From: a virus
Taxonomy: Duplodnaviria > Heunggongvirae > Uroviricota > Caudoviricetes
Direction: 5' to 3' (one strand)
IMG/VR virus record: IMGVR_UViG_2654587772_000002
DNA: 64,000 nucleotides
Position numbers and translations under genes: made by a program. This document shows positions 1,678 to 29,611 of the stretch, in pieces. Below the pieces are notes generated by a model, which ran no database searches, was not told where the DNA came from, and saw nothing but the letters and a program-made list of their open reading frames with translations. The first letter of the stretch is position 1; each line of letters opens with the position of its first letter.

Positions 1678-1704
1678 TAAAACGGGGCGCTCGGCCCCTT
1701 AATA

Positions 1705-2745: not shown

Positions 2746-2754
2746 TTTTCTTCC

Positions 2755-3036
2755 TCACATCCAGCCACGAAGTTGATGCTCAACAGCAACCACGTATTCA
2801 TCGAATAATGACGATATTTGCGAATCATTAATGATGCGCACGTTTACAAAATATCCGTCTTCCTTAACACATACCGGTTCGCCATCTTCAGTCAGTTCTC
2901 CGGTTTCTTTGTACACGTTACCTATCACGTCAATAAGAATATCATCCTGCATCGACTCGTCATCATAATAGCCAGTGCTATCCATAAAGGCCGAAAAGTC
3001 GGCCCTGTCGGCAAATTTGAGTGTTAAATCTTTCAT
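2755..3036 (-). CDS. hypothetical acidic protein (possible tail-fibre accessory)
   Basis: 93-aa ORF directly downstream of stf, 1-nt overlap. Confidence 0.3.
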   Translation of the reverse strand: MKDLTLKFADRADFSAFMDSTGYYDDESMQDDILIDVIGNVYKETGELTEDGEPVCVKEDGYFVNVRIINDSQISSLFDEYVVAVEHQLRGWM

Positions 3037-5411
3037 TAGATTGACTCCCCCACCTGAGCATCAGTCAATGCCTTGTGCCATATTCTGAAATTCCTGACAT
3101 GACCAAATAAATGACGTAACCCGGCTGTAGTCTGGCCTCCAATACGGATAATTGCGGTGTTCTGAATACAGGACCATGTGGTTTTTGTTTCGCTGGATAT
3201 ATGCCCGTTACTTACTGAGCACGTAGACTGCTCTGACTTTACACGCATCCCCATAACCATTTTTTCAAGCGATGCGTTTTCGTTTACCCGTCTGTTAGCT
3301 CCTCCAATATCGCAATAAGGAAATCCGTCGTAATCTGTTGAACGACCGAAGCCAAGAATAATAGCCGCTCCGGTTTGATGACCGCCGGTATCAAAAACAC
3401 GTGGCGCTGCATTTGGCGTTTTATACCAGTTCTTATGTACCTCACAAAGAACCGTAAAAGGAAGATTATAAAGATTATTCTTAATTGGAACTGTAACTAT
3501 ATCGCTTGCGCGGGTCGCCGCCGTCGCTCCTGATATAATAAAAGATGATACACAAGGCCCATCTTCTACTTGTGGGGTGGCCAGATAAATATAGTCACCA
3601 GATACGGTTGCCCCGCTCTGCTTAGGAGAATACTGTATCTGAGAGCCTATTTTTAGCTCCCCATCAATTGCCTGAATTGTTGCCTCTGCAAAAATCCATC
3701 CGGTAGCTTCGTCCTTTCTGACTCTCGCTGTAATCCTTGAGGCAGCACCGCCTGTCATATTAATTTCAAGCGTTTGTGTATCAATATACGCATCACCAAG
3801 AAAAGTTGTTGCGCTACCGTCATATTTATCAAACCGGATACGCAACCTTACCTGCAGTTCTGTTTTAAAACGACATGAGGTTGTCACGTGTTTATTATCG
3901 CCTGAGACATCAACTGACTTTGTTGCAGCAATTGATGCCATATTAATGGCTGAGGTTTGCCCAATCAGAGAATCGTTGCAGACAAACTTTCCATAGGTAA
4001 AACCAAAATTATCCGTCCCTGTTTCGGGCACATCCATATTTGAAGATCGCCCCCAACTGGCAGGGCTTTCCGAATTGAGCATGTAGTTTGTTCTTTGCCC
4101 CTCAATAAGCAGGCCATCACGTTCAAATCGTGGCTCGTCAATGGCAGCCTCTGTCAGCACACCAGATTTGTTAATATAGGTTGCTTTCGATGCACGTTTA
4201 AACTTAACAATCTTGTCGCCAGGCATCGTTATTTCATCGTCACCAATAACAATTTTTTTATATGACGGCGAAAAGCCCGTAATCATATCCAGCGAATCGT
4301 TAAATGGTATCCACACATCAGGCAGCGGCTGTAAGACATATTTATACGGCTCCGCAGCCTGGCTTGCGTACTCTCTGGCTGCATCTTCGCTTGCTTTAGC
4401 TGCCGTCTGGCTTGCTGCCGATGCTTTCGCTGAGTTCGCAGCCGCTGTTTCGCTCACCTTTGCGTTGGTTTCACTGGTTTTTGCTGCTTTTTGACTGTTA
4501 GCTGATGCAGTGGCAGAAGCAGCCGCCGCGCTTGCAGAACTGGCTGCGGCACTCTCGCTTTGAGCCGCTGCATCCTGACTGCTTTTCGCCGCAGTTTCAC
4601 TGGCTTTGGCATTCGTTTCACTGGTCTTCGCTGCCGTCTGGCTGGACTTTGCGTTAGTTTCACTCGTCTTCGCAGCTTTCTGGCTGTTAGCCGTAGCAGT
4701 TGCTGATCCAGCTGCTGAAGTCGCAGAACCGGCTGCCGCGCTCTCGCTTTGGGCTGCTGCAACCTGGCTGTTTTTTGCCGCAGTTTCACTGGCTTTGGCA
4801 TTCGTTTCGCTGGTCTTCGCTGCCGTCTGGCTGGACTTTGCGTTGGTTTCGCTCGTCTTTGCGGCTGTCTCGCTATTTTTCGCGTTGGTTTCTGATTTTT
4901 TAGCTGCTGTTGCGGAGTTTGCCGATGCAGTCTGCGAGGCCGCTGCCGCCTGTGCGCTGTTAGCTGCATTCGTTTCTGAGGTTTTCGCCGCGTTCTTCGA
5001 TGATGCCGCTGCAGTTTCGGATTTCTTTGCCGCCGCTGCGCTCTGAGAGGCGGCTTCAGCGTTGCGTGCCGCTTCTTCCACCATTTCCTCAAAACGACGC
5101 AATGCCTCCGGCATGACATCATCTTCCGTCATGGCACCGAGAAAATCATTCAGCGTACCTGGTCTGGAACCTTCATAGACGGTAATGGTCCCGGCATGTG
5201 AAGGCGGAAAACCTTCAACCAGCAGGGTGACGCTGTACTGACCATACTCAACATCCATGCTGTAACGCCCGGCTTCATCCGGATTTTCAGAGGCCACCGT
5301 GTTCACCAGTACCGTGGTGCTGTTACGCTTTGCCTTCAGTTGAATAGTGCAGTTCTGTATTGGTTTTCCCGCACCATCTTTCAGCACACCTGAGATTTTT
5401 ACTGCTGCCAT
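3036..5411 (-). CDS. stf: side tail fibre protein (lambda Stf-like)
   Basis: N-terminus MAAVKISGVLKDGAGKPIQNCTIQLKA matches lambda Stf; long Ala/Ser/Thr repeat region; follows lom as in lambda; ATG at 5411 preferred over GTG at 5417. Confidence 0.8.
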   Translation of the reverse strand: MAAVKISGVLKDGAGKPIQNCTIQLKAKRNSTTVLVNTVASENPDEAGRYSMDVEYGQYSVTLLVEGFPPSHAGTITVYEGSRPGTLNDFLGAMTEDDVMPEALRRFEEMVEEAARNAEAASQSAAAAKKSETAAASSKNAAKTSETNAANSAQAAAASQTASANSATAAKKSETNAKNSETAAKTSETNAKSSQTAAKTSETNAKASETAAKNSQVAAAQSESAAAGSATSAAGSATATANSQKAAKTSETNAKSSQTAAKTSETNAKASETAAKSSQDAAAQSESAAASSASAAAASATASANSQKAAKTSETNAKVSETAAANSAKASAASQTAAKASEDAAREYASQAAEPYKYVLQPLPDVWIPFNDSLDMITGFSPSYKKIVIGDDEITMPGDKIVKFKRASKATYINKSGVLTEAAIDEPRFERDGLLIEGQRTNYMLNSESPASWGRSSNMDVPETGTDNFGFTYGKFVCNDSLIGQTSAINMASIAATKSVDVSGDNKHVTTSCRFKTELQVRLRIRFDKYDGSATTFLGDAYIDTQTLEINMTGGAASRITARVRKDEATGWIFAEATIQAIDGELKIGSQIQYSPKQSGATVSGDYIYLATPQVEDGPCVSSFIISGATAATRASDIVTVPIKNNLYNLPFTVLCEVHKNWYKTPNAAPRVFDTGGHQTGAAIILGFGRSTDYDGFPYCDIGGANRRVNENASLEKMVMGMRVKSEQSTCSVSNGHISSETKTTWSCIQNTAIIRIGGQTTAGLRHLFGHVRNFRIWHKALTDAQVGESI
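4380..5060. repeat. in-frame tandem repeats inside stf encoding AAKTSETNAK-type units
   Basis: near-identical DNA blocks recur at about 4556-4700 and 4740-4890; protein shows repeated SETNAK motifs. Confidence 0.6.
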
Positions 5412-5422
5412 ATCCACTCCAC

Positions 5423-5448
5423 AAAAAAGCCCGCCTGAACCGGCGGGC
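5423..5448 (-). terminator. rho-independent terminator downstream of lom
   Basis: GC hairpin GCCCGCC..GGCGGGC followed by a T-run on the minus strand. Confidence 0.55.
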
Positions 5449-5475
5449 TGTCATAACACTGTGTTACCTGGCTAA

Positions 5476-6075
5476 TCAGAACTTATAACCGACACCCACG
5501 ATGAAACCGTCAGTGCGCCAGTCGCCACTGCCGGAGCCTTCATAAGCAATATCAATGGCCACGGATTCGGTCGGGTTAAACTGCACGCCAGCTCCCCACG
5601 CCAGAGACGTGTTGCTGTGGCGATCGTCATCACTTCCGGTCAGCACATCGTGCGTTTTCCCCTTGTTGTCAGTTACGCGGAGATAATCCCCGGAGAACGT
5701 CGAAACACGGCTGTAAGCCACACCTGCCATCGCATAAGCACTGAACCATTCATTCACGCGTACAGATGGCCCCGCCATCATGCTGAACCAGCGGTTACGC
5801 ACTGAATCTTCATGCCAGCGGGTATCGCTGTAATGCGTTTTTTGCTCATCTTTGGCATTGGCATAACTGAATGACGTCACCAGCCCCAGCGTGTCCGTAA
5901 ATTCATAACGGTATTTCACGTTAATGCCCTTCAGGTCATCACTGCCTGGCATATCAGTATGGGCCTGAAGATACCCGGCGCTTAGTGTGGACTGATGCTC
6001 TGCTGCGCTCGCTGGCGTACCAGCGGCAACCAGCCAGACTACTGCGGACAGAATAACAGCACATAATTTACGCAT
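5476..6075 (-). CDS. lom: outer membrane protein Lom (Ail/Lom/OmpX family)
   Basis: 199 aa, signal peptide, C-terminal GYKF, strong match to lambda Lom; positioned J-lom-stf as in lambda. Confidence 0.85.
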   Translation of the reverse strand: MRKLCAVILSAVVWLVAAGTPASAAEHQSTLSAGYLQAHTDMPGSDDLKGINVKYRYEFTDTLGLVTSFSYANAKDEQKTHYSDTRWHEDSVRNRWFSMMAGPSVRVNEWFSAYAMAGVAYSRVSTFSGDYLRVTDNKGKTHDVLTGSDDDRHSNTSLAWGAGVQFNPTESVAIDIAYEGSGSGDWRTDGFIVGVGYKF

Positions 6076-6099
6076 AATTACCTCTCGCTTTTCTGCAAT

Positions 6100-6123
6100 A
6101 AAAAAGGCGTCATTTCTGACGCC
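6100..6123 (-). terminator. rho-independent terminator between J and lom
   Basis: hairpin GGCGTCA-TTTC-TGACGCC with T-run on the minus strand. Confidence 0.5.
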
Positions 6124-6142
6124 CGTATTGGGGTTATAAAAT

Positions 6143-9100
6143 TCAGCTGATACTGATGCCTGCGGTGGCTTTCTTCATCACCACAACCAGCAAATCGCTG
6201 ATACTTGCTGTGGGATACCAGCCATTTACCCACCATGCTGATACCGAAAACTCCAGTGTCATTACGCCACTGCCTGCAGGCATATCAATAACACCCGTGT
6301 AAATCAGAGTATTATCCAGAGCCGTTCGGTTATAAATTTCAGCCCCGTTTTTCTTCACTATCAGGCGGCATGACGAATAAGTATCGCTATTCTCCCGTTC
6401 ATGTCTGGCACCGCTGAAAGCCACCGCCGGGATAACAATTTGCCGGTCAAACGGCTGATCGTCATAAACCCTGACGGTAATGGTCCCTGATGGCCACCGT
6501 TCCGGTGCACGGGAGTCACGGGGGAAAGCTTTGCCCACTGTTTTAACGAGATCGCCTTCAATCTGGTTCGCGGACAGTTTTCCCAGAACCCGGCAGTTCT
6601 CGTTAATCGTGACGTTGTTGAGCGTCCCGGAGTTCGCATTCACGTTACCGCTGATATCGGCATTTTTTGCCGTCAGCCGCCCGTCCGGTGTCAGGGAAAA
6701 TGCCGGAGGATTACCGCCGCTGGTAATGGTGGGAGCCGTCAGATATTTCAGGAACACTTCATTCATAAATATCTGATCGCCCTGACCAACAAACATCGGC
6801 TTTGTGTTGCCATTCGCAGGATTAATCATCGCAATCCTGTCCGCCGCCAGCAGCACCTGACTCTGCATACCGTCAGGGGTATTCTCAATACCGGCACCAA
6901 TACCCGCGATATAAAGGCGTCCGTCCTGCATCTGCTGCAGCTTCACAGCCCACATGCTGTTCAGGTTATTATTTGTATCAACCTGAACCTTCTGTATCTG
7001 CTGAATTGCCGCACTCTGGTCTTCCAGTTTCTTATTGACGGTCTGCGTGATTTCATTGCTGACATCCGTAATGGACGTCCTGATTTCAGCCAGGTCAGGC
7101 GCAAGCTGACCGTTATCAATCTGCGTCCACAGCTCCTGAGCCAGATGGCTTTTCCCTATCTCTCCTTTGAAAAAATCCAGATAGCCGGATGCATCATCAC
7201 TCGGCTGGCCAACAGCCTCCACAAATGCCGATTTGCCAACGGTGTTCACACTGCGGATGTAAAAATAATAATCATGGCCCGGTTTGATATTGATACTGGC
7301 GGCTATCCAGTACAGCGCCGTGCCAAGATAGCGGGCTGTGGTTTCAACCTGCCTGATATCGGTAATCCGCTTTTCCGAGAACCAGAACTCAAACTGTACC
7401 GTCGGGTCATAAATGGCAAGATGCGGCGTGGCGGTTATCTGAAAATAGCCCGGCGTCAGCTCAATCCTCGACGGTGCTGCCGGTGCGGCAATCCGGAACG
7501 ATACCGACGCCGCATCGCCCTGCTGCCCCCACGCATTTACCGCCCGGACTGTCAGCCTGTAGTTCCCCAGCGCCAGTTGCGTGAAGCGGTATGTGGTTTC
7601 CGTCGTCCGGGCCGTGCTGACCAGCCGCTCACTGCCGTCGTCCGCTGTTACGGTCAGACGGAGCAGGAAGCTCACGCCCTTCACCACCTTCGGTGTGTCC
7701 CATCGCGCCAGCACCTGATATTCCCCGCTGTCTGCAGTGACTTCTGCGGTCAGGTGCTGCACCGCTGGCGGCGTGACACCATTCACCGTGCCACTCTGTT
7801 CGCCGTCAAAGTGCGCCCCGTTATCCACGATGGCCTCTTTTTCCGGCACATGCTGCACGGCGGTGATGGCATACGTGCCGTCGTCGTTCTCACGGATACT
7901 CACGCAGCGGAACAGGCGCTGGCGCAGCGTCGGCAGCTTCAGCCCCCATACGCTGTATTCAGCAACACCCTCAGGAACACGGCTCACTTTTACCTTCACG
8001 CCGTCGTTGACGGACTGAACCTCCACGCTGACCGGATTGCCACTTCCGTCAACCAGGCTTATCAGCGTGGTACCGGAGGATGGCAGCGTGATTTCACGGT
8101 CGAGCGTCAGCGTCCGGGTCTGGCTGTTCACCGCCAGCACACGACCACCGGTGCTGATACCGGCATAGTCATCATCGCAGATTTCAATAACATCGCCCGG
8201 TACATGGCGAAGCCCTTCTGCGCCGACGCTGAAATCCACGGTCTGCGTCTCCAGCAGCTCCGTTTTAATCAGCCACAGCCCGGCGCGGTGTGCCTGCCCC
8301 CGGCTGGTACAGCCAAAGGCATCCATCTTCGTAACATTACGACCGTAACGGGCAATGGCCTGCGTATCTTCAACAAGCTCTGTCGCCGTCTCCCAGCCGT
8401 TGTCCGGGTCAATCCAGTTCACCTCAACGGCATTATGGCGGTCTTTCAGGGCGCTGAAGCTGTAGCGGAACGGCGCGCCATCATCCGGCATCACCACATT
8501 ACTGCGGTTATAGGTCCACGCCTTATCCGACGGTCGGTCCTGCACGAACGTCAGCGTCTGCCCGTTCCATACCGGCATACAGCGCATCGCCGAGCAGAAA
8601 TCACTGAGAACGTCCCACGCCTTGCGCTGTGTGGTCAGGTACGCATTACAGGTGATGCGCGGCTCCGTGCCGCCAAAGCCGTCCGGCACTGACTGGTCGC
8701 AGTACTGGCCGATGACATACAGCGCCCATTTGTCCACATCCGCCGCACCAAGACGTTTCCCCATGCCGTAGCGCGGATGGGTCAGCATATCCCACAGACA
8801 CCAGGCCATGTTGTTGCTGTATGCTGGCTTAAACGTTCCGTCCCAGATACCGCTGTATTGTCGCGTCTGCGGGTTATAGTTCGACGGCACCTGCAGAATG
8901 CGCCCGCGAAGATGATAATTACGACTCACCTGCTGGCTGCCGAACTGCTCCGAGTCCACCTGTACGCCGACCAGTGCCGTGTTCGGGTAGCACTGTTTCA
9001 CATCGATGATTTCGGTGTATGACGACCAGAGCGTTTTGTTCTGCAGCTGGTCTGTGGTGCTGTCCGGCGTCATCCTGCGCATCCGGATATTAAACGGGCG

Positions 9101-9622
9101 CGGCGGCAGGTTATCCACCACCACCGAGGCCAGATACTGCGAGGTGGTTTTGCCTTTAATGGTGATGTCTTTTTCCGTCACCCAGCCACCGTTACGCTGT
9201 ATCTGAACCAGCAGGCGGACTTCCGACGGATTCCGGTCCCCCTTTGAGGTGGTTTCCACCAGTGCCTGCACACCGAAGGTAAAGCGCAGACGGTCGATGT
9301 TTGCAGACGTGATGGTCCGGGTAATCGGCGTGTCGTACTTCACTTCCGTACCCAGCACCGTCTCGGAGCCGGAGGATTCAAACCCCTCCGGCGGTGTCTG
9401 CTCCTGCTCACCGGCACGGAACACCACCGTGACACCGGAGATGTTGGTATTCCCCTCAGTGTCCAGCACCGGCGTACTGTTCAGCAGCACGCTTTTTAAT
9501 CCATCCACCGGACCTTCAACCGGCCCTTCGCTGATGGCATCGATCACACTCAGCAACTGCGTGGACTTCAGGTTGTCCTTCGCTTCGCGCGGGGTATGCC
9601 CCTTACTGCTTCCTTTACTCAT
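6143..9622 (-). CDS. J: host specificity protein J (central tail fibre / tip attachment protein)
   Basis: 1159 aa; N-terminus [31 protein letters not shown] as in lambda J; followed by lom. Confidence 0.9.
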
Positions 9623-9682
9623 TCCTCACGCTCCATAAATGACAAAACCGCCCGCAGGCGGTTTCACATAAAACATTTTGCA

Positions 9683-10354
9683 TCAGCGACCAATCACCAC
9701 AACCTGACCACCGTCCCCTTCGTCTGCCGTGCTGATCTCCTGAGAAACCACGCGTGACCCCACGCGCATTTCCCCGTACAGAACAGGCAGAACATTGCCC
9801 TGGGCAACCATGTTATCCAGTGAGGAGAAATAGGTGTTCTGCTTACCGTTATCCGTTGTCTGTGTACGGGGAGTTCTGGCTTTCGGTGCCAGCATCTGCG
9901 CCACACCACCGAGGACCATACTGGCACCGAGAGAAAACAGGATGCCGGTCATACCACCGCCCCAATGGCTGCCCCCCCATGCTGCAAGGGTGGCTCCGGC
10001 GGTAAAGAATGATCCGGCAATGGCGGCAGCCCCCCAGGACAATCTGGAATACGCCACCTGACTTGGCCCCGGCGACTCTGGAACAATATGAATCACAGCG
10101 CCATCAGGCAGAGTCTCATGTAACTGCGCCGTTAACCCGGACGTGCTGACGTCCCGCCCGGCAATCCGTACCTGATACCAGCCGTCGCTCAGTTTCTGAC
10201 GAAACGCCGGGAGCTGTGTGGCCAGTGCCCGGATGGCTTCAGCCCCCGTTTTCACACGAAGGTCGATGCGGCGACCAAATCGTTGTAAATCCCCGTAAAG
10301 GCAGATGCGCGCCATGCCCGGTGACGCCAGAGGGAGTGTGTGCGTCGCTGCCAT
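9683..10354 (-). CDS. I: tail assembly protein I
   Basis: 223 aa, start MAATHTLPLASPGMARICLYGDLQRFG as lambda gpI; immediately upstream of J. Confidence 0.8.
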   Translation of the reverse strand: MAATHTLPLASPGMARICLYGDLQRFGRRIDLRVKTGAEAIRALATQLPAFRQKLSDGWYQVRIAGRDVSTSGLTAQLHETLPDGAVIHIVPESPGPSQVAYSRLSWGAAAIAGSFFTAGATLAAWGGSHWGGGMTGILFSLGASMVLGGVAQMLAPKARTPRTQTTDNGKQNTYFSSLDNMVAQGNVLPVLYGEMRVGSRVVSQEISTADEGDGGQVVVIGR

Positions 10355-10991
10355 TTGTCGGTGTACCTCTCTCGTTTGCTCAGTTGTTCAGGAATATGGT
10401 GCAGCAGCTCACCGTCACCACAGTAAATGGCGGCATGATTCGGCACCGATGAACCAAAACAGCACAGCAGCACATCGCCCGGCTGCGCCGCTGACAACGC
10501 ACCTGATACAGCCCTGTGGCCTCCAGATTATCCAGATAGAGATTCTGACCGTGACGCCACCAGTCATCCCCGCGATGAAAATCCGGCATCTCAATCCCCG
10601 CCAGATGATAAGCATCCCGGAACAGCGTGTAACAGTCCGTCACCCCGTGCTCAAAGCGCCGCCGGTGAGATGCGGCACACAGCGGAACTTATGAATCGCC
10701 CCCCGGCAGACCAGCCACCACGGCAAATCACTCTGCACCTGCAGCCGCCGGTCAGTCTCACTCAGCCAGGGCAGACCACCGGGGTGGCTGTGGACCAGCG
10801 CCACAATCTCACCCTGCATTTCTGCCTGCAGCCAGTCCTCCGGAGCCATCCGGAAATAATCCTCCGGCTCACCGGAAATATTCACGCGGGAAATATCTTT
10901 CCCCCTCCGGCGTGCTTACCACGAAGCCGCACGACTCCGCTGGCGCACATCGCCGGGCGTGCGCCAGAATCGCTGATTCTGTCTGTGTCAT
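10252..10991 (-). pseudogene. K: tail protein K (MPN/JAMM plus NlpC/P60), disrupted by frameshifts
   Basis: start MTQTESAILAHARRCAPAESCGFVVSTPEGERYFP then frame breaks; reading frame resumes in three separate ORFs (10640-10885, 10380-10643, 10252-10497) carrying HSHPGG and the NlpC-like C-terminus. Confidence 0.7.
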
Positions 10992-10996
10992 GGGAT

Positions 10997-11195
10997 TTAC
11001 TGCGAAAGTTTGTTAATGGAAAGGAAGCCGCCAAAGTTGCCGACGTTATTGCGAAACTTACAGCCACTCAGGCATTTGCTGCATTTATCCTTCGTGATAT
11101 CGGACGTCGGCTGGTCATATTCATCCGCGACCGCCGGACCGCTATAACCGCACTCATCGCCGCGATAGGTCCAGGTGCAGGTGTTGTTTGTTGAC
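10997..11195 (-). pseudogene. L: 3' fragment of tail protein L
   Basis: only C-terminal ...TCTWTYRGDECGYSGPAVADEYDQPTSDITKDKCSKCLSGCKFRNNVGNFGGFLSINKLSQ is present; homology ends abruptly near 11195. Confidence 0.6.
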
Positions 11196-11199: not shown

Positions 11200-13100
11200 T
11201 TTGATGCAACCCAGGCCACAGGGGTGCTCTGAACAGCGGCATCGGCAACCTTACCAGGAAGCTCTTTTGCGGCATTCCATAGATTACTACCAGCCTCTTT
11301 AATGTATTTTCCCGGGTTCTTAATGAAATCAATTGCACTATCAATTGCATCACTGAAAACCTTTTTCAGGTTATCGACAGTAAAGAAGTCTTTGATGGCG
11401 TCTAATTTTTCGTTCAGACTCTTGGTTGTGTCACTGAACCAGGCTGAAATAGCATCGCCAATCTTGGCTGTGTAATCGTTGAATGTTGTGGATATGGTGT
11501 CACCAAGGTTAGAAATATATGTTTTCTAAATTGGTAATCCCACTATCAATGGCCTGGGCAATACTTTCCGTCGAAAATGATTGCAACATATTGCCGATAT
11601 CCTCAAATCCAAGTGATTTGAGAACGCCACCAATGGCATTGCTAATACCAGATACCAGTCCTCCCATATCGAGAACGTTAGCCAGTGTATAAGCCGCTTT
11701 TTGCTGAAAAGATGGATCTTCCCCATCCTTTAAGCCCAAAGGTCCGACGTTGTGCTTCTGTATCATTCCAACCGGTTTACCGCATCATAGATACCTCCAG
11801 CCACCGTGCCGACTAGCGGAATTGCGCGTAAAAGCCCCCTTTGCAAAAGCCTTAACACCTAGTTTCTCCAATCCCTTAGTTGCAAGTTTTCCGGCACCGC
11901 GAGTAGCCAATTCGCCAGCTTCTTTGGCAGCAGCTTTTTTCCCACCAAAGCCCAATAAGCTTGCAACTTTTTTTATACCTAAAGCGCCTAGTGCCATCGA
12001 GCCAACTTTCTTTAGTGCCCCACGGCAAAAAATAAGGGAAGCAATACCACCGGCCCCCTTCCCTAACAGGGCTAAATAATTTGGACAGCAAGCCGCCCTT
12101 CTTTTTCCCGGTGTTTTTGGCTATCTGATCAAGGCGCTGAGAATCTTGTCATTGCCCTCTTTAATTTCGCTGGGTCTGATCCTGAAGTTCCTGAACCGTC
12201 CGTTTTTGGGTGTTAACCTGAACGACATCGGGCACTACTTTGCGATTTACGCCTAAAAAAACCTTTTTCTACGGCTGTTATCGTCATTGCCACGAATCAC
12301 ATCGGCAATTGACTTTCTGGCACCATTAAGCGAACCGCCAACTTCTTTTGATATTCCGCCAAGCTCTTTCCTGCTGCCCACAATGGACCAGCAACGGCAT
12401 AACCTAAAGCATCGACGGCACGAGTCTCTGAAGGGTTACCTATGCCTTCAGCTTACTTTTGACAGTTTTTTTAATAAACCCGATTCAGCATTTAGACGCT
12501 CATCATCCTCTTTGCGCTAGCTTTTTCAGCACGTTCAGCACGGGGCATCTTCCGCTGCGGCCTTACTCCCTGACTTCCCAATAAAACGACCACGCGCATC
12601 GCGTTGGTTTTGGCTTTTTTGCGCCACCGCCTTTTTGACCGAACATTTCGCGAGCGTGTTCGGCTGCTTCGGTCCGTTGTGCCTTTACATCCTCTGGTAT
12701 AGCCTTCCTGCGTCGTTTTTTACCCTTTTGGTGTGGTTGATTTGGCCCGCTGTTTCCTGTTGAGCAACATCTTCCTGAACTACACGAGAAACGTCCCCTA
12801 AGTTAAGCCGTTTCATTGCCTCAACAAATAGGGTCCACTGATGGCGCATTGGCCACAAAGTCTGGCCGTGAATTTTCGATTGTGCGATTTAATGCCGACA
12901 CACTGCGAGAGACAGGATCAAACAGTTGCAACGCGCCCCCCTTTCAAAATCTTCAACAGCTTCCCGGATACCTGCAAGCTCTTCCAGCTCTTTTGCGCTG
13001 GCGGTTTCAACTGTCCTTATAACATCGTCAATGTTGGCGTTTTTTCGTTCCATGATCTTATCGCCTACCGTTTCGGTTTAAGTTTTTCTTCCAGTTTCTC
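11200..13100 (-). pseudogene. fragmented tape-measure-like gene remnant
   Basis: several short minus-strand ORFs in different frames with Gly/Ala-rich segments (GLVSGISNAIGGVLKSLG; GAGKLATKGLEKLGVKAFAKG); no intact long ORF. Confidence 0.35.
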
Positions 13101-13135
13101 CAACAGGAAAAACGCATAGGATTTCAGTAAGCCTT

Positions 13136-13621
13136 TCAGCGTCCTGAATCGGTATACCCCCATACAAAACCAGGTTGGACACTAAGGTCTGATAGCTTTT
13201 CAATCCCCACCTGTGGAATGAAGTCGGTAGCCCGAAAGGGCACCCACAGACGGGTATATGCACCCTCTGTGGACTCCTTTTTATCCTGATTTGGGCATTT
13301 ATGCGGCGGGAGACGAAGACGCATTTCACCTTTATCGATGTAGCACGGCAAACCATGTTCGAGCTTTTCATGAGCCAGTCGGATGTGTGCCGCCAGCTTC
13401 ATAAATTCAGTATCAATGGCCATCCGTTTAATCGTTTCATAACGACGCTCAGCCTGATCTTCACGAGTACCGCTAACATCGTTATAAAGCTCACACTGAT
13501 AAGCGAATTCCCAAAAAACGCAAATCAACGATCGCTTCTTTGAATTCCGCGTCGTCTTCAGGTGGCAATGCTGCACGGCGCATCTCCAGCATTTCCATTG
13601 GCCCCAACCATCAAGCGGCAC
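13136..13621 (-). CDS. hypothetical protein (overlaps the 3' end of the upstream ORF)
   Basis: 161-aa ORF with non-ATG start; uncertain. Confidence 0.25.
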   Translation of the reverse strand: MPLDGWGQWKCWRCAVQHCHLKTTRNSKKRSLICVFWEFAYQCELYNDVSGTREDQAERRYETIKRMAIDTEFMKLAAHIRLAHEKLEHGLPCYIDKGEMRLRLPPHKCPNQDKKESTEGAYTRLWVPFRATDFIPQVGIEKLSDLSVQPGFVWGYTDSGR

Positions 13622-14021
13622 GATACCGCCATTGATAAGGCACTCCCTCTACAGACACCTCAATATCGTCAATGAACGGTTCCGCTTCCAGGACCTGGAT
13701 ATCTTCAGCCAGGGCATTCATATCGCAATCGTAATAATGCTCTTTACCGCAATGTTTACAGGTGTAGGTGAATGTCTCGACCGGTGTTTCACGGGAGCCG
13801 GTAAATATCCACCATAACGCGGTAATCCGGTCCTGCGCCGTCCATGTCAGGGGATCATGTTTCGCGGGTTCAGCCAGCAAGGCTTTTAAATACGCCGTTG
13901 TCTGTTGTTCTTGTTCCTCCGGTGTTATCGAGTTGAAACGCATCGCATCAGCAATATTTGGCTGACGGAACTGGATCAATTCAGTTGGCCGCGATGGTAG
14001 CGGGAAAAGAGGTAAAAGCAT
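13611..14021 (-). CDS. hypothetical protein (position suggests tail assembly chaperone)
   Basis: 136 aa, located just upstream of the tape-measure remnant. Confidence 0.3.
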   Translation of the reverse strand: MLLPLFPLPSRPTELIQFRQPNIADAMRFNSITPEEQEQQTTAYLKALLAEPAKHDPLTWTAQDRITALWWIFTGSRETPVETFTYTCKHCGKEHYYDCDMNALAEDIQVLEAEPFIDDIEVSVEGVPYQWRYRAA

Positions 14022-14192
14022 CCTTGCTCCTTAATTCAAAGAGAAAAGCTAAAGCCCAGAAGGGAAGCCAAAGAACTTGAGGATTGGTTAAACGTGCTGT
14101 GCAATGCGAAGGTCATTGGGAATGACTTAAATTCCGTAACCTGATCCCGCGCATAGGTGACATCTCCGGTAGTGACCGGGAATACCGTCATC

Positions 14193-14648
14193 TCATTTTC
14201 CAGGTTTGGTTAAACCGGAGGACAGCAACCGATAAATACGCACATTGAGCAAATATTTAGATGGTATGTTCCCGGTGCCGTCAGGATTGATCACCCGACT
14301 TTTTGCCGTCTTAAACCAGTCCAAAACGAGGCCATCAACGGTATCCCTGACCATCATTGTTATCTGCCCTGGCGAACGCTCCGTTGGCTGAAGGATATTC
14401 CCTCCGCCGATTTTAATCGTTTCATATTCGATGCTGTAATCGTGGTAGGTAATGTCTTTAGCAAAGAAGTCTGCCCCCTCCAGACCATCAACTTCGACAG
14501 AGAACTGCCATCCTTGCGCGAACAGCATTTTGTTCATGATGATTGACGTCAGCTTACCAACTTCCCGTTCACCAACGCCGGAGCCAAATAATGTCGTCGT
14601 TAATGCCGAAGATACATAAGACTTTACTGAAGCAACATTAAGCCCCAT
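14193..14648 (-). CDS. putative virion / tail protein
   Basis: 151-aa ORF in the tail gene block; no confident motif. Confidence 0.3.
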   Translation of the reverse strand: MGLNVASVKSYVSSALTTTLFGSGVGEREVGKLTSIIMNKMLFAQGWQFSVEVDGLEGADFFAKDITYHDYSIEYETIKIGGGNILQPTERSPGQITMMVRDTVDGLVLDWFKTAKSRVINPDGTGNIPSKYLLNVRIYRLLSSGLTKPGK

Positions 14649-14658
14649 ATCAGCCCCC

Positions 14659-15249
<591 letters not shown>

Positions 15250-15369
15250 TTAACCGATTCTACGAGTAGTCATTTGTTCATCGTGTAACAATATTGCCAT
15301 TGGATAAAATAACTACAGCGCCCACAAACGGGCGCATTCTGTACATGACTTGAGATATATTATGTTGCA

Positions 15370-16152
15370 TTAAAGCTTTTCAAGATAATCAGCCAAGCCT
15401 TTCGCATTATCGGCATAGTATTTTGTTGCATTTACTATTATTGACTCATAATACGATTTGCATTCTTTCTTCCATGGAGTGCACGAATTTATTTTTTCCA
15501 TATCGTTTTTATTTTTAGAAATACCAACAAGCATAATGTACCCGATAAATCTTGTTGTCAACGCGCCAATCGGTAGCGTTCTATTCTCGGCTACTGTCTT
15601 TATTAAATTATCTTTATATTGAGGAATGAAATAGTTACCAACATATTCCAGATTTGCTTCAATAGGATTAAGATAGAATGAGCAATACTGAAAAGTGGGA
15701 ATTTGTCTAAATTTAACACCAGAACATAATGAATAAATTTCTTGTTCTTTTGTTAGTTCTTTTACTATGTGACTGTTGTCAGTCGTATCTTCTAATCTTA
15801 TATAGTTCAAAGACGATTTTGCTTGTCCTGGGCTTACAAGCTCAATAACAGGATGCCCATTAGACAATGTTATTCTTTCGATCTTACCCCGAATTCTAGA
15901 AGTTTGACTCCATTCATCTAAGGCTGCTATTTCATTTTTCTTGAATGAATCAACAATATCTGATGGCAAGCTAAAAACAGTAGCTTTCGTATTCATAGTA
16001 TATGCAAGCGAAGCAGATACCATATAGTTTCTGACTAAATTATAGTCCTTCTCGGAAACAGAATACTCATTAGGAATAGCTATTGAATTTGCAAATGAAT
16101 AGCTGCTAACAAAAGCAAACGGCAACAATAGTTTAAACATTAATTTTTTCAC
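15370..16152 (-). CDS. secreted hypothetical protein (moron)
   Basis: 260 aa; signal peptide MKKLMFKLLLPFAFVSSYSFA; AT-rich coding sequence unlike its neighbours. Confidence 0.55.
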   Translation of the reverse strand: MKKLMFKLLLPFAFVSSYSFANSIAIPNEYSVSEKDYNLVRNYMVSASLAYTMNTKATVFSLPSDIVDSFKKNEIAALDEWSQTSRIRGKIERITLSNGHPVIELVSPGQAKSSLNYIRLEDTTDNSHIVKELTKEQEIYSLCSGVKFRQIPTFQYCSFYLNPIEANLEYVGNYFIPQYKDNLIKTVAENRTLPIGALTTRFIGYIMLVGISKNKNDMEKINSCTPWKKECKSYYESIIVNATKYYADNAKGLADYLEKL

Positions 16153-16181
16153 TTATCACTATCCTTCGAATATCTTTACAT

Positions 16182-16818
16182 TTAAAGCCCGTCTTTGCAG
16201 AGACTAGTTGCTGTAGCGGTAAGTTGTGAAACAGGAATGTTAGGGCTGTCCCGTTTCATTAGAGCTAACTTAGTTTCAACACATTTTTTTATTCCTGGGG
16301 TCAAATTATCAGTATCATTTGCATCAGCACTCCCTAAAGCCCTCCGCTCAAGCGCACCTTGAGTATTTTGAGTGCGCATGCCACGCGCATTCAGAAATTG
16401 TTCGCTATTTATATAGCTACTTAAAGATTTTCCCTGATCTTCTTTGCGAATTTTTCCATTAGCCACTAATACAGCCCAACTAGGAATCATCATATCTGGT
16501 GCAGTTTCACAATACGCTACCATCTGATTAAAAGCCGAACGGTTATATTCATTAAGATTAGGATTAAGAAATTTCGAATAATACATTTTTGCAGCATCAT
16601 CTGTCGCAACCTTATACATTTCTTGCTGAACCATTGCTTCAGACAAACTTAAGCGCGTCATATCATTCTGGAGAGCTTTTTTCATCTTGCCGTCTTGACT
16701 GACAGTGAAACCGTAAACGTGCCCAAGGTATTTCGTGTAGTCGGTACAAATCTCCTTTACACTTGATGCTGCATTAACAGTCCCAGTCATAAATAATAAC
16801 GGTAGTAATAGTTTTCTC
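16182..16818 (-). CDS. secreted hypothetical protein (moron)
   Basis: signal peptide MRKLLLPLLFMTGTVNA from the internal ATG; AT-rich; Cys-containing. Confidence 0.55.
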
Positions 16819-16915
16819 ATTATAACCTCACCTGCCTTATAACTCATTTAGGGTACATATTTTCGCCTTTAAAAAAAGAGGTTATTAGATCCAATTGTGC
16901 ATTCATTAAACAAGC

Positions 16916-16932
16916 AATGCTCTAATAAATTT
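16916..16932 (+). promoter_or_regulatory. C1-repressor-operator-like site (AATGCTCTAATAAATTT)
   Basis: matches the 17-bp P1 C1 operator consensus ATTGCTCTAATAAATTT with one mismatch; lies upstream of the antirepressor region. Confidence 0.45.
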
Positions 16933-17246
16933 GTATTTTTAAGTCACGAATGCTATCTTTGCGCATCATATTGACCTTTTAATCGTTCAGGCTTATATTT
17001 CCGCTGTCGTAGCAAATTCTGCGACCGGGTTTAGCAGCCTGAATGATTGTGCGGACAGCCGCAGATATCCGATATTGCGGTATTTTTGTGTCCGTAAAAC
17101 CGCGTTACGCCCAAATTATGGTGGGGCGTGATGGGGAGGCTTCGGCCTGCTGGTTTCACAATCGCCAGTCTGCTAACCCCGTCACGTCCTGCCACCTGTT
17201 TAGCAGCGGGTAGCAGGTTGTTAAACCTGATTGTGAGGCCGTAACT

Positions 17247-17468
17247 ATGGTTAATGCCAATCCTTGCGCACGCCCAGAATTCATCTGGCGTTTCTATTCC
17301 TGTAAAAAACACCACTATCACTTCGTTATCGCAGCAACTGAAGACGAAGCACGCTCTCAATTGCCTGATGGCCCCTGCATTTTTACTGCCCGTTTTTCAA
17401 CTAACTCGCGCAATTCACTTAGTTACTGGAACCTCCCCTTCTCTGCCGACGTTCAGGGGGGTTTATGA
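17247..17468 (+). CDS. small protein overlapping the antirepressor start (icd-like position)
   Basis: 73-aa ORF ending in a 4-nt overlap with the ant start; assignment is by position only. Confidence 0.3.
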   Translation: MVNANPCARPEFIWRFYSCKKHHYHFVIAATEDEARSQLPDGPCIFTARFSTNSRNSLSYWNLPFSADVQGGL

Positions 17469-18856
17469 AAAAACCTCTCGTCACCCGTAATGAAATAGCC
17501 GAAGCGATCGCCCTGCATACAACCTGTATGCCGACACGGGAGATCCCCGGCGCAATTGCCAACTATTTCATGATAACCAGGCGTTTTTATACCCGAACAG
17601 ATAAGGCTGTGATCAACAAGCTACTGATAGCCGAGATCAGGGATTATTTGATTGAACAAGGACGTCTACGTTACGCAACAGTGGCAGCAGAAATGAGAAA
17701 GGAGGCACATAGAATGACCGGTAATAATTTAAATGTTGAAAAAACAGTACCTGTTACGTCAGCTACGCCAGCACCAGCCGTGAATGTCATCCCCAACACC
17801 GGAGACACAATCGACAGCCAAACATTGTTGAAGATGGTCAATGAGGCACGTAAGTTATGTGGAGAACCAGAGGTTAGAAACAATAAATTCATCGAAAAAA
17901 TACTCGATGAACTTGAAGGTGAATTTTACACAAAAAGTGCAAAATCCCATGGCACAAGGGCCGGGCGCTCTTTTGAGGTCATAACCATGACCTATAAACA
18001 AGCCCTGCGAGTCGCCGCACGCGAATCAAAAGCGGTCCGCCGTTCGCTACATACCATGATTCAGTCATTGGAACCTATAAATGTAGAAAATCAGCCTGAT
18101 GAAATTCCCGTTCTGGAATGGCAGGGAGTACGCGTCGTGACAACCGAGACTCTTGCTAGAGGGTATGGCACTACACCTATTCGTATTCAGCAGAACTACA
18201 ATCGCAATGAAGAACGATTTGTAGAGGGTAAACACTTCTTTAAAATCAAAGGAGATGAGATAAAAAGTTTGCGACTATCTTTTAGCGAGTTGCAAATTTC
18301 CCCCAAGACCAGATCCTTAATACTCTGGACCGAACGCGGAGCGGCACGCATGTCTAAGATCGTAGACACAGAGCAAGCGTGGGCATTCTTTGAAAAACTG
18401 GAAGACAGCTACTTCCGGCAAAAAGAACAGCAACCGGTCACAATCCCCCAAACATTACCAGAAGCTCTACGCCTGGCTGCCGAGTTGGCAGAGCAGAAAA
18501 TGCAGTTGGAACAACAGCTGGTGGCCGCAGCCCCTAAAGTAGATTTTGCCGACCGGGTATCAGTGGCTAATGGAATCCTGATCGGGAACTTTGCAAAGGT
18601 CGTTGGACTTAAGCAAAACGCCCTTTTCTCATGGTTGCGCCAGAACGGCATTCTCATGGCTTTTGGTGCGCGCAAAAACGTACCGCGCCAGCAGTACATT
18701 AACGCCGGGTATTTCACGGTGAAAGAAGTGGTGCTGGATGATGAAAATGGCTACCAGATACGGCTGACGCCCCAATTAACGGGTAAAGGCCAGCAGTGGT
18801 TAACTCGCAAGCTACTTGATGCTGGTTTGTTAAAACCAGTGGCGTCCTTGTCTTAA
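17465..18856 (+). CDS. ant: phage antirepressor (ORF6N-type N domain plus KilAC C-terminal domain)
   Basis: 463 aa; C-terminal APKVDFADRVSVANGILIGNFAKVVGL...GYFTVKEV block typical of KilAC antirepressors. Confidence 0.75.
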   Translation: MKKPLVTRNEIAEAIALHTTCMPTREIPGAIANYFMITRRFYTRTDKAVINKLLIAEIRDYLIEQGRLRYATVAAEMRKEAHRMTGNNLNVEKTVPVTSATPAPAVNVIPNTGDTIDSQTLLKMVNEARKLCGEPEVRNNKFIEKILDELEGEFYTKSAKSHGTRAGRSFEVITMTYKQALRVAARESKAVRRSLHTMIQSLEPINVENQPDEIPVLEWQGVRVVTTETLARGYGTTPIRIQQNYNRNEERFVEGKHFFKIKGDEIKSLRLSFSELQISPKTRSLILWTERGAARMSKIVDTEQAWAFFEKLEDSYFRQKEQQPVTIPQTLPEALRLAAELAEQKMQLEQQLVAAAPKVDFADRVSVANGILIGNFAKVVGLKQNALFSWLRQNGILMAFGARKNVPRQQYINAGYFTVKEVVLDDENGYQIRLTPQLTGKGQQWLTRKLLDAGLLKPVASLS

Positions 18857-20369: not shown

Positions 20370-21176
20370 ATGAGCGATTTTACTTTTTCTGGCTATGAAT
20401 TGGCCTGCTTTGTAACACACTCTGGTCTATCCCGTAGCGCCGGGCATATCCTGTCGCAATGTGCAAATCTCGCGGCAACAACCAGTGAATACTTCATTCA
20501 TAAGCCTCACCGCCTGATCGCGGCAGAAACTGGTTATAGCCAATCAACCGTCGTTCGTGCATTCCGTGAAGCAGTAAACAAAGGAATCCTGTCAGTAGAG
20601 ATTGTTATCGGCGATCACCGTGAACGTCGCGCTAACCTGTACCGGTTTACCCCATCCTTTTTGGCCTTCGCACAACAAGCCAAAAATGCGCTGATTGAAA
20701 GCAAATTAAAGATCTCTTCAGCCGCAACCAAGGTTAAAGCTGTTCTCGCTAAGACATTGGCTTTATTTGATTTTTTATCCACACCCCCATGTCAAAATGA
20801 TACCCCCTCCCCCTGTCAGGATGACGTGGCAATAAAGAATAAGAAGTCACAAGTTAAAAAAACAAAAAGATCAGTTTCCGGCGCTGCCGGAACGACCAAA
20901 CTCAAAAAATTGACTTCATGGATCGCTGGTGCAAAAGCAAAGGCCGACAATCTGCGGTTATCCAAAAAACGCGCTCAAAAACATGAGTTCCAGCAGAAAG
21001 TTGAGGCAGCGGCCCGGAAATATGCTTACCTGAAGAGCAAGCGTTCTCCTGATATTGGCGGGATATCAAACTTCGATAATCTGCCGCATTGCATGACGAT
21101 AAACGAAGCTCTGGATATGGTCCTATCTACAAGAAAAGAAAAGGAATTTTATATTCCAACTGGTTTTCGCGGATGA
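20370..21176 (+). CDS. HTH-domain protein, possible RepL-like lytic replication protein
   Basis: 268 aa from internal ATG; follows kilA as repL does in P1; Lys-rich C-terminus. Confidence 0.4.
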   Translation: MSDFTFSGYELACFVTHSGLSRSAGHILSQCANLAATTSEYFIHKPHRLIAAETGYSQSTVVRAFREAVNKGILSVEIVIGDHRERRANLYRFTPSFLAFAQQAKNALIESKLKISSAATKVKAVLAKTLALFDFLSTPPCQNDTPSPCQDDVAIKNKKSQVKKTKRSVSGAAGTTKLKKLTSWIAGAKAKADNLRLSKKRAQKHEFQQKVEAAARKYAYLKSKRSPDIGGISNFDNLPHCMTINEALDMVLSTRKEKEFYIPTGFRG

Positions 21177-21271
21177 TCGCGAATGATAGAATCTTTACGT
21201 GTATTTAACGCTCAATACACACTATTTTGTCACCAGTATTATTTTTAACGTTTTTATAGGTAACTTTTTCC

Positions 21272-21787
21272 ATGAAAAAAGTAGTTTTAACGGCCCTTCT
21301 GGCATGTGCCTTGGGGGTTGCTGGGACTGCCTCCGCATATCAGCACACACTCTCCTTAGACTTTGCCCAAGGAAGCGCAACGGTTAAAGGCGGAGATATA
21401 AAAGATCCAAAAGGCGTGAATATTAAATATCGCTACGAAATGGATTCTACGTGGGGTGGATTAGCTTCGGTCACTTACGAAAAGTCAAACACAAACCTAT
21501 GGAATGCCGCCAAAGCCAAGGTTGAGTATGCCTCATTTACTTTTGGTCCGTCATACAGATTCAATGAATTAATGAGTGCATACGGCTTGGTGGGTTTAAG
21601 CCATGCGGATGCAACAGCAAAACTGAATGGACAGTCATATGCTGGCTTTGGAACCGATTTTGCTTATGGACTTGGGCTTCAATTTAACCCATCTCCGCAG
21701 TTTGCAGTTGATCTCTCGTATGAACGTTCTAAACCAGGTGATCTAAGCAATAGCATTTGGATGCTTGGTGTCGGTTACCGATTTTAA
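21272..21787 (+). CDS. Ail/Lom/OmpX (PagC-like) outer membrane protein
   Basis: 171 aa; signal peptide; beta-barrel signature and C-terminal GVGYRF shared with Lom. Confidence 0.8.
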   Translation: MKKVVLTALLACALGVAGTASAYQHTLSLDFAQGSATVKGGDIKDPKGVNIKYRYEMDSTWGGLASVTYEKSNTNLWNAAKAKVEYASFTFGPSYRFNELMSAYGLVGLSHADATAKLNGQSYAGFGTDFAYGLGLQFNPSPQFAVDLSYERSKPGDLSNSIWMLGVGYRF

Positions 21788-21834
21788 CTATTTAGTCCCT
21801 CTGCCCTACGCAGAGGGATTTATACTTTGCTCTG

Positions 21835-22098
21835 GTGATATTCGTTATGTTCATTGAGACTAACGCTATGACTATCCTGGTATCTATTCCCATCTATATA
21901 CTAATTGGTGGACTGATATACGCATTAAGTCGATATATTTTGCGAGCTAATGCAGAAATGGCCTGGTGGGATCGTTTTTGGATAATGATTTTTTTTGGCA
22001 TATTCTGGCCATTAGGGCTCATGTTTGTTGCAACATTTCTTCTGATGTGGATATTCACCCTTCCAGGTGATTTCTATAGAAAAAAAACCAGACATTGA
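21835..22098 (+). CDS. small integral membrane protein
   Basis: 87 aa with two to three hydrophobic helices. Confidence 0.4.
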   Translation: MIFVMFIETNAMTILVSIPIYILIGGLIYALSRYILRANAEMAWWDRFWIMIFFGIFWPLGLMFVATFLLMWIFTLPGDFYRKKTRH

Positions 22099-22280
22099 TA
22101 CACCCGCTGCGGTGTGCTTGGGGCTATCAGCTTCAGGTATTACCCGAAAAGCAGATAGAAGAAAGCCCCAGTAAACATTATGCGTCCCGCACAACGCTTA
22201 ACATTAACCGGGGCCATACCTATGCTTAGCGTACTTAGATTAATCCTCTCCTCTGTCAAGGAGCAAGGAATTTTTTACTG

Positions 22281-22878
22281 CTATGCCGCCTTTCCAGTTA
22301 TGGATTCTGCGACAAGAACAACCCCATGCTTACTTCGATCCGGATGTTCACTCCATATCTCGGATTCAGGAATACTTTCCCCGTCATAGCAAACACGTTC
22401 GCCATCAAATGGGTAATACTGAGCAGTATCGGTGTCCAGGATAAAAACTTTTAGTTCGGAAGAACGACGAGCGATGTGCTGCCAAAGAGCTTTTCCACCT
22501 TCGTATTGCTCATTATCACTGAGCAAAACAACACCAGCTTTTGAGGCTACGGTTTCGTAAACAAAAGTGGCTAAACCGACATCCCGGACGATTCCATCAA
22601 CCACGATACCTTCAATCTGGGCAACATCGCTATCCTCCCAGAACTTCCTTACCAGTACGCCTTCAAGCTGCGGGCGACGTTGAAGTTCAAGAGTAGCGAC
22701 AACCTTATGCCGCATATCACCATCGATAACAGAAGGCGCAGCCTCTATTACAGCTGCAAATGGGGTTTTGGAATCCCATATAACCTGGTAAAGCACACCC
22801 TGGATGGTAACGCCGTCCAGGATCGAAAATCGACGAGCGACAGTACCCGGGGAGTACGACATTGGAATCACAGCCATT
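22281..22878 (-). CDS. hypothetical protein
   Basis: about 199 aa from the internal ATG (MAVIPMSY...); no confident domain. Confidence 0.4.
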
Positions 22879-23048
22879 TTAGAGTCCCCCTTTAACAGTA
22901 CAGGCACAAACATCTACCTCAATAATTGTAGTTTATTAGAACATTAATAATCTAACATAAAACTCCAGACAATGTTATCGATGCATTTTTATATAAAAAG
23001 GTTATAAAAAAAGCTCCCGAAGGAGCTTTAAAATACAAGGGATGACTC

Positions 23049-28506: not shown

Positions 28507-28590
28507 GTGAAATCGTGGCGATTTCACCTTGAAATTTTAGATGGATTTACTTTAAAAACAGTAGGTTAATAGTGAAATTTGAATGGCGAA
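28507..28590. other. parS: P1-type parS centromere
   Basis: heptamer GTGAAAT/ATTTCAC and hexamer TGGCGA boxes flanking an AT-rich spacer; reverse complement is nearly identical to the P1 parS sequence as recalled. Confidence 0.75.
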
Positions 28591-28593
28591 AGT

Positions 28594-29595: not shown

Positions 29596-29611
29596 GGGGG
29601 TTTCTTACTCC

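Follow-up and report, generated by a model that had tools for sequence, protein, structure and literature searches.

Two adjacent minus-strand genes at positions 15370-16847 of a 64,000-nucleotide stretch of the tailed-phage record IMGVR_UViG_2654587772_000002 (this whole stretch is called the window below) are probably a rare, deeply diverged allele of the sim operon of P1-like phage-plasmids, consisting of a full-length simA-type gene and a simC-type gene without simB. The sim locus type and its variable region are already known, simABC being one of eight highly variable regions of low guanine-plus-cytosine content (GC) in P1-like phage-plasmids (PMC9603915), and what is new here is the rare diverged allele. 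By analogy with P1, the function of the two genes is most likely the periplasmic exclusion of superinfecting P1-like phages, perhaps with an altered specificity.

P1-like phage-plasmids, which carry resistance genes, occur commonly in Escherichia coli and Salmonella of clinical and animal origin. Whether one of them can enter a cell that already houses another is determined by immunity, incompatibility and exclusion. To our knowledge, the mechanism of Sim has hardly been studied since about 1990, and we know of neither a structure nor a target. If sim alleles differ in the phages that they exclude, this would explain their diversity and would be relevant to the use of P1 as a delivery vector. 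The analysis provides three handles on this question, namely three deep SimC lineages, P1 simA as a remnant of a gene for a conserved periplasmic protein of 180-250 amino acids (aa), and a census of the cassettes found at the sim site.

Two intact genes encode putative exported proteins

The simC-type gene (15370-16152, minus strand) is an intact open reading frame (ORF) of 260 codons that begins with GTG and has AAGGA ahead of its start. The simA-type gene (16182-16820, minus strand) is likewise intact and encodes 212 aa from the ATG at 16820, which lies behind a GGTGAGG Shine-Dalgarno sequence. An alternative upstream ATG at 16847 would give a protein of 221 aa (16182-16847, minus strand); the 212-aa start is the one chosen by the Prokaryotic Genome Annotation Pipeline and by the collection gene calls in relatives. 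A pair of adjacent minus-strand genes for proteins of 260 and about 212 aa, as reported in a preliminary description of this DNA made from its letters alone, is thus present and uninterrupted.

Export signals were judged with a heuristic script that looks for the n-, h- and c-regions of signal peptides. In both N-termini a positively charged n-region is followed by a hydrophobic core and a cleavage site of the AXA type; signal peptides of the Sec type were thus recovered for both proteins, as claimed in the preliminary description for signal peptides of the classical kind. The predicted Sec signal peptide of the SimA-type protein covers aa 1-17 (16770-16820, minus strand; MRKLLLPLLFMTGTVNA, followed by ASS). 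Its N-terminus reads MRK plus LLLPLLFMTGTVNA before ASS, with predicted cleavage after residue 17, and this signal-peptide sequence is kept in all relatives. In the SimC-type protein the predicted Sec signal peptide covers aa 1-21 (16090-16152, minus strand; MKKLMFKLLLPFAFVSSYSFA, followed by NSI), the N-terminus being MKKLMFK plus LLLPFAFVSSYSFA before NSI, and cleavage is predicted after residue 21 at a site with SFA before and N after the cut. The same script found no lipobox and no further transmembrane-like segment in either protein, and both are predicted to be soluble after export.

The base composition of the pair is strongly deviant, as the preliminary description had noted. The GC of 15370-16847 is 0.357 against a window mean of 0.477 (standard deviation 0.041), and none of the 2353 equal-sized segments (1478 bp) elsewhere in the 64 kb reaches a value that low. 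The GC at third codon positions is 0.28 and 0.32 in the two genes, compared with 0.46-0.48 in the flanking pmgC and ant1. The segment therefore shows the deviant base composition that is looked for in a moron, being the lowest in GC of all segments of its size.

The two proteins are related to P1 SimC and SimA

A BLASTP comparison aligned the 260-aa protein over its full length with P1 SimC (P1_gp041), at 33% identity over 248 aa (E 5e-46). The protein also matches PHROG 14355, the family of P1 SimC, with an E-value of 1.3e-39 over aa 21-237, and in a phmmer search of 1.84e9 cluster representatives the P1-type SimC, as well as the SimC type of contig L011 (described below), was matched at E 6e-34 to 6e-39. 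The likeness to P1 SimC extends to length (260 versus 264 aa), a signal peptide, four cysteines, the position and orientation between pmgC and immI, and GC (0.33 versus 0.34). In contrast to P1 SimC, the window protein belongs to the most divergent of three lineages, is not preceded by simB, and is of a rare type that accounts for 1 of the 141 SimC-bearing plasmids in PLSDB. Across the SimC family 53 alignment columns are invariant, among them C143, C157, the C224-T-P-W stretch and C231, and NE.AA..W and CTPW stand out as motifs. The invariance of these four cysteines would fit a disulfide-bonded periplasmic protein.

The first 50 aa of the 212-aa protein, including its signal peptide, are 90% identical to P1 SimA (P1_gp043, 52 aa). 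Like P1 simA, the window gene is the first of its operon and lies beside the C1 operator Oc4. The rest of the 212-aa protein has no P1 counterpart and does not resemble SimB or SimC, while the protein as a whole matches PHROG 3933, which is also the family of P1 SimA, at E 1.4e-86. Whereas the window gene is full length, P1 simA stops where the homology ends (window 16712), and simB starts there. Since the L011 contig, which is of Salmonella type, carries SimA-long, SimB and SimC together, the 52-aa P1 simA is a remnant of the 5' part of a longer gene that the window has kept whole. SimA-type proteins form 28 homologous clusters in E. coli, Salmonella and Klebsiella; some of these bear the name 'simA domain protein', an NCBI name which shows that the similarity had already been noticed at the annotation level. 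The relatives measure 163-246 aa and have variable C-termini, with a cysteine-containing hairpin that is duplicated in some of them (Salmonella). P1 SimB (P1_gp042, 111 aa) is likewise a sim-locus product with a signal peptide, both in P1 and in L011; unlike SimA and SimC, it is not represented in the window, and neither window protein resembles it.

These relationships modify the earlier statement that neither protein has a recognisable domain. That statement holds for Pfam, NCBIfam and PADLOC at their thresholds: the Pfam and NCBIfam scans of both proteins gave nothing above threshold, and profile searches of the PDB sequences with both families gave no match. It does not hold for homology, given P1 SimC, P1 SimA and PHROGs 14355 and 3933.

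Genomic setting and control elements

Beyond about 11.2 kb, the window consists of P1-like phage-plasmid sequence (genus Punavirus), which aligns with P1 at 96-99% identity over most of its length, apart from a handful of replaced segments. The sim cassette is flanked on both sides by sequence that is 96-97.5% identical to the P1 sequence around simABC (window 14000-15296 and 16712-18048). The two genes occupy the position of P1 simA-simB-simC ("superimmunity"), between pmgC (14659-15225, followed by tub, pmgB and sit) and the Oc4/c4-icd-ant unit (icd 17247-17468, ant1 from 17465), and they are transcribed away from immI. This is in agreement with the earlier placement of the pair between structural and immunity-like genes, the structural side being the tail-tube genes and the other side immI.

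A C1 repressor operator equivalent to P1 Oc4/Op51 lies at 16916-16932 on the plus strand (AATGCTCTAATAAATTT, one mismatch to the consensus; assigned from the P1 annotation). It stands between the sim unit and the divergent c4-icd-ant unit, 96 nt ahead of the simA-type start codon, and is kept in an alignment of the window, P1 and two plasmids. C1-operator matches in the window number 7, compared with 0.02 expected by chance. From its location, a partial C1 repression of the sim operon is possible. The adjoining sim leader (16821-16915, minus strand), which corresponds to the predicted PsimA region of P1, is about 96% identical to P1 and nearly invariant across four elements; in the P1 record a predicted sigma-70 promoter, PsimA, is annotated within it. 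At the other end, a consensus scan and inspection of the sequence revealed a terminator-like GC-rich hairpin with a T-rich tail (15318-15335, minus strand), 35 nt past the simC-type stop, which likely ends the two-gene operon. The annotated P1 late promoter LPsit lies between the cassette and pmgC.

The sim site is a locus of variable cassettes

The window was compared by blastn with P1, P7 and three plasmids. Relative to P1, the segment 15297-16711 (no strand assigned) is replaced and bears no resemblance to P1 simB-simC at the nucleotide level. On the left, all cassettes break within window positions 15277-15296, just upstream of LPsit/pmgC, while the right breakpoints vary: 16712 for P1 (inside simA), 16918 for P7, 16164 for element L004 and 16603 for element L005. 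Shared left and shifting right breakpoints form the pattern that would be expected from repeated recombination in a hot spot. The label of a moron given in the preliminary description is therefore apt as far as the deviant GC, the terminator-like hairpin and the cassette replacement go, but the segment is not an unrecognised insertion, as the region is a published variable one (PMC9603915).

In the six architectures examined, the products encoded at the sim site are mostly exported or membrane proteins. Signal peptides are found on SimA-long, SimB, SimC, the proteins of a 158-aa family and Upf50.0, and the L004 cassette encodes a 116-aa protein with a membrane segment together with a 344-aa SH3-domain protein without signal peptide. 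In P7 (L002) the site holds a gene (3650-4171) for the lipoprotein Upf50.5, which carries a lipobox and weakly matches the surface-exclusion lipoprotein TraT (E 7e-5, short of the Pfam cut-off); the label 'DNA methyltransferase' that Upf50.5 bears in RefSeq and PHROGs looks like a mis-annotation. The P7 pair of Upf50.5 and Upf50.0 (DUF5384), as well as the cassettes with SimA-long and a 158-aa protein (PHROG 3429), resemble the window cassette in occupying the same site, in being exported and in having a GC below average. They differ from it in not being related in sequence to SimC and in their abundance, with about 168-200 and about 194 PLSDB records, respectively, versus 1. A remote homology between SimC and the 158-aa family was considered and rejected, as hhalign aligned their signal peptides only.

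Contig AADOKG010000015.1 of assembly GCA_005690115.1 (96 kb; L011) encodes SimA-long, SimB and a SimC of a third lineage in a row at 3059-4795. Its SimA-long (179 aa) is 67% identical to the window protein, its SimB (108 aa) is 61% identical to P1 SimB, and its SimC (264 aa) is 40% identical to P1 SimC and 36% to the window protein. By its gene content, this arrangement looks like the undeleted form of P1 simABC. SimC thus falls into three lineages, the P1 type, the L011 type and the window type. A simple link between the sim allele and the length of sit was also rejected, as Sit lengths of 1098 and 1124 aa occur among carriers of a single allele.

Distribution and selection

In an exhaustive phmmer search, the SimC relatives among the 1.84 billion cluster representatives came to six proteins, including two broken copies, one window-type fragment and one weak repetitive match. 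A SimC profile search of 5.8 billion sequences returned five clusters. The SimC family is almost confined to P1-like elements. In PLSDB, SimC is encoded by 141 plasmids, 140 with the P1 type and one with the window type. SimA-related sequence is present in 267 PLSDB plasmids, about half of them with long forms and about half with a 49-aa remnant, as judged from an evenly spaced listing. When P1 relatives were defined as PLSDB plasmids with a pmgC at least 90% identical to that of the window (about 506 plasmids), the window allele was found in 1 of them, and it also occurs in 2 of 5426 complete E. coli genomes. The cluster of the window-type protein holds 116 member sequences, mostly from raw-read assemblies. 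The 158-aa family, which elsewhere lies downstream of SimA-long, has 194 PLSDB records, and the P7-type Upf50.0 has 200, of which 168 are nearly identical. These PLSDB counts, which can overlap, indicate that the sim site holds at least three cassette classes of comparable frequency. Many of the carriers are clinical E. coli.

All contigs recovered with this allele have the gene pair for 212 and 260 aa between icd/ant and pmgC/tub/pmgB/sit, and the arrangement of the window is repeated in four other contigs with intact neighbours. Selection was assessed against the closest relative, p24AR0070B (97.5% DNA identity), as the ratio of nonsynonymous to synonymous substitution rates (dN/dS). With small counts of 14-16 differences per gene, the simC-type gene gave a ratio of 0.14 and the simA-type gene one of 0.06, values comparable to that of pmgC (0.08). 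Both genes are intact and under purifying selection.

Predicted structures

Structure prediction, which the preliminary description had proposed as a check, was applied to both proteins. The AlphaFold2 model of the SimA-type protein (alignment of 17 sequences) reached a mean predicted local distance difference test (pLDDT) score of 80.5. Its N-domain, from about aa 20 to 130, was modelled confidently as all-helical with pLDDT above 90, though with no informative fold match, and is followed by a disordered, variable linker and a cysteine-containing C-terminal helical hairpin. Two invariant cysteines lie in the N-domain and two more in the hairpin. The model of the SimC-type protein, made from five sequences, was poor (pLDDT 48). 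At this low confidence it has five beta strands at aa 87-160, with helices on either side.

A weak lead on the SimC fold came from its P1-type relatives. Residues 67-159 of P1 SimC align with positions 52-144 of PF12869 (tRNA_anti-like, a family with the oligonucleotide/oligosaccharide-binding (OB) fold) at E 0.0011 and 19 bits, where the cut-off is 23.5. Matches of P1-type members to this family range from 15 to 19 bits (E 0.001-0.014), below the cut-off, and two further members match in the same register. The region of the window gene that aligns with this stretch of P1-type SimC lies at 15682-15963 on the minus strand (about aa 64-157); the window protein itself has no Pfam match, PF12869 included, at the gathering threshold. 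We therefore treat an OB-fold core of SimC as a lead and not as a result.

Proposed function and alternative explanations

Published descriptions state that sim confers superinfection exclusion and may act by blocking DNA injection into the cytoplasm (PMC8546580, PMC9177967). An exclusion role of the SimC-type protein is suggested by its homology to P1 Sim, its position and its predicted export, and it most likely acts in the periplasm as P1 Sim does. Envelope proteins encoded by prophages or plasmids that block DNA entry after adsorption are well known, as in T4 Imm and Sp, P22 SieA and plasmid TraT. Unlike the window proteins, which are predicted to be soluble in the periplasm, these are mostly membrane proteins or lipoproteins, and they have no sequence relationship to the window pair.

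We propose the following course of events. Transcription would probably start in the conserved leader beside Oc4 and probably end at the hairpin at 15318-15335. Both products would be exported by the Sec pathway, cut by signal peptidase I and folded in the periplasm with disulfide bonds. Maillou and Dreiseikelmann reportedly purified P1 Sim in a processed form, going by the title of their 1990 paper. The SimC-type protein, with a probable OB-fold core and a cysteine-stabilised helical C-terminal part, would act after adsorption and, by analogy with P1 Sim, keep superinfecting P1-type DNA out of the cytoplasm. The SimC lineages may represent different specificity types, most simply aimed at a variable component of phage injection; such types are suggested because SimC identities of only 33-40% occur inside backbones that are more than 95% identical. 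The SimA-type protein would be a further conserved factor of the periplasm, which either assists exclusion or excludes phages on its own. P1, which carries a truncated version, does not need it for exclusion.

Several points weigh against this interpretation. Exclusion by the window allele is read from homology, and at 33% identity to P1 SimC the activity or target of the window protein may differ. The P1 Sim phenotype itself was reportedly shown with multicopy clones, so that exclusion by a single-copy prophage may differ in strength. Neither protein matches any defence-system model of PADLOC-DB at E <= 0.1, and structure and profile searches found no relative of known function for the SimA-type N-domain, either in fold or in sequence. 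The OB-fold match is below threshold and comes from P1-type SimC members only, the SimC model is poor, and a consensus scan did not call a sigma-70 promoter in the sim leader of the window. Finally, the sequence beside the window copy shows signs of faulty assembly or sequencing, though neither gene of the pair is interrupted.

Somewhat speculatively, the findings may be extended to a modular periplasmic exclusion locus, in which a conserved SimA is combined with swappable exported effectors that would define exclusion-specificity groups. The effectors would be the three SimC lineages (33-40% identity), SimB or the 158-aa family, and P7-type elements would swap the whole unit, simA included, for a pair of their own. 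Such specificity groups would resemble immunity or incompatibility groups among nearly identical phage-plasmids. The window allele would then be a distinct specificity type, and full-length SimA an uncharacterised exclusion component with a new helical fold. We put this forward as a tentative possibility.

Of the other explanations, one is worth keeping although we consider it unlikely, namely that the SimA-type protein is the main actor, or that in place of a P1-specific device the pair is an envelope defence of broad range against unrelated phages or a modular combination of a conserved leader gene with a swappable effector. Full-length SimA-type genes are about as common as SimC (about half of 267 PLSDB records versus 141) and are paired with varied downstream genes (SimC', the 158-aa family, or a set of 116-aa, 158-aa and SH3-domain proteins), and the SimA N-domain is strongly conserved and confidently folded, in a gene with a dN/dS of 0.06. 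However, P1, in which sim exclusion was defined, keeps just the 52-aa simA remnant, P7-type elements lack simA altogether, and neither a known function nor a fold match was found for the SimA-type protein. That the pair is lysogenic-conversion cargo for virulence, altering serum resistance, adhesion or host interaction, is very unlikely: the only homologue with a known phenotype is a phage-exclusion protein, the Pfam and NCBIfam searches found no similarity to any virulence family, and members of the family occur almost only in P1-like elements, which come from sources of all sorts. These observations stand against a low-GC cassette with exported products on a temperate element, the fact that many carriers are clinical E. 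coli, and the weak similarity of the P7-type lipoprotein at the sim site to TraT, which is also a complement-resistance protein.

The remaining two explanations are highly improbable. As a pair of small neighbouring genes with deviant composition and export signals in both products, the cassette could in principle encode a secreted toxin and its immunity protein, for bacteriocin-like or contact-independent antagonism. Searches of Pfam, NCBIfam and PADLOC found no toxin, nuclease, pore-forming or immunity domain, however, and both partners are exported, whereas immunity proteins against toxins that act in the periplasm are usually membrane-anchored or lipoproteins. Moreover, the partners are not co-inherited, as the SimA-type gene occurs with other partners and SimC occurs without full-length SimA. 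Equally improbable are late virion or tail-assembly proteins of the adjoining tail-tube module, as might be supposed from a location directly upstream of pmgC-tub-pmgB-sit on the same strand. The terminator-like hairpin and the late promoter LPsit separate the cassette from pmgC, unrelated genes replace it in elements with tail genes more than 95% identical, and signal peptides are not expected on tail proteins. In P1, simA, simB and simC are dispensable for lytic growth, whereas the adjoining tail genes are all essential (PMC10695390). Exclusion proteins, virulence factors and a toxin/immunity pair had all been offered as possible cargo in the preliminary description; the SimC homology argues for the first, and nothing points to the other two. 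Absence of a signal peptide or homology to structural virion proteins had been named there as evidence to the contrary, and neither was found.

Other features of the window

The sequence beside the sim cassette has peculiarities of its own. Compared with the closest intact plasmid, window 12071-14204 has 18 single-base insertions and 3 deletions of homopolymer type, in which an adjoining base is repeated or dropped; they break sit, pmgB (pieces of 136 and 161 aa) and tub (pieces of 51 and 151 aa). The coding sequence of 14205-16847 has zero indels in the same comparison, and tub and pmgB are intact in other carriers of the window sim allele. By their pattern, the indels resemble homopolymer sequencing errors more than gene decay. 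We considered a prophage in decay that retains sim selectively, and rejected this idea as unsupported because all 21 indels are single-base, homopolymer-type changes that look like sequencing error.

Window 1-11186 is not P1-like; it is the tail region of a lambdoid prophage, 99.9% identical to the chromosome of E. coli ST2747, with genes for gpI (9683-10354), gpJ (6143-9622), Lom (5476-6075), tail fibres (3036-5417 and 1705-2745) and a resolvase/invertase (551-1141). At about 11186/11187 this lambdoid part gives way, without transition, to the interior of the P1-like sit gene. The junction is not covered by any complete E. coli genome. The 'chromosome' CP007393 likewise mixes P1-like with lambdoid pieces and contains many partial pseudogenes. 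The junction is either a misassembly or a real integration.

Within the P1-like part, four further differences from P1 were observed. Ant1 (17465-18856) has 463 aa, compared with 347 aa in P1; an insert of about 394 bp at 18049-18442 places an additional ORF6N domain (aa 216-299) before the KilAC/ANT domain and is absent from P1, P7 and three related plasmids. The P1 rlfA/rlfB region is replaced at 21147-23006, where an outer-membrane beta-barrel protein of the Ail/Lom family (21272-21787, plus strand) and a 210-aa ORF without Pfam match (22281-22913, minus strand) are encoded. The par/rep region (28547-33160) matches P1 weakly (64.5% over 950 bp) or not at all, which is consistent with an alternative replicon type; such a plasmid replicon type has been described for P1-like phage-plasmids (PMC9603915). 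Lastly, a 6.2-kb segment at 55948-62132, in the variable region upstream of phd/doc, has no P1 counterpart and carries, on the minus strand, a complete set of genes for a type I restriction-modification system, with hsdR at 56023-59139, hsdS at 59262-60473 and hsdM at 60470-62032.

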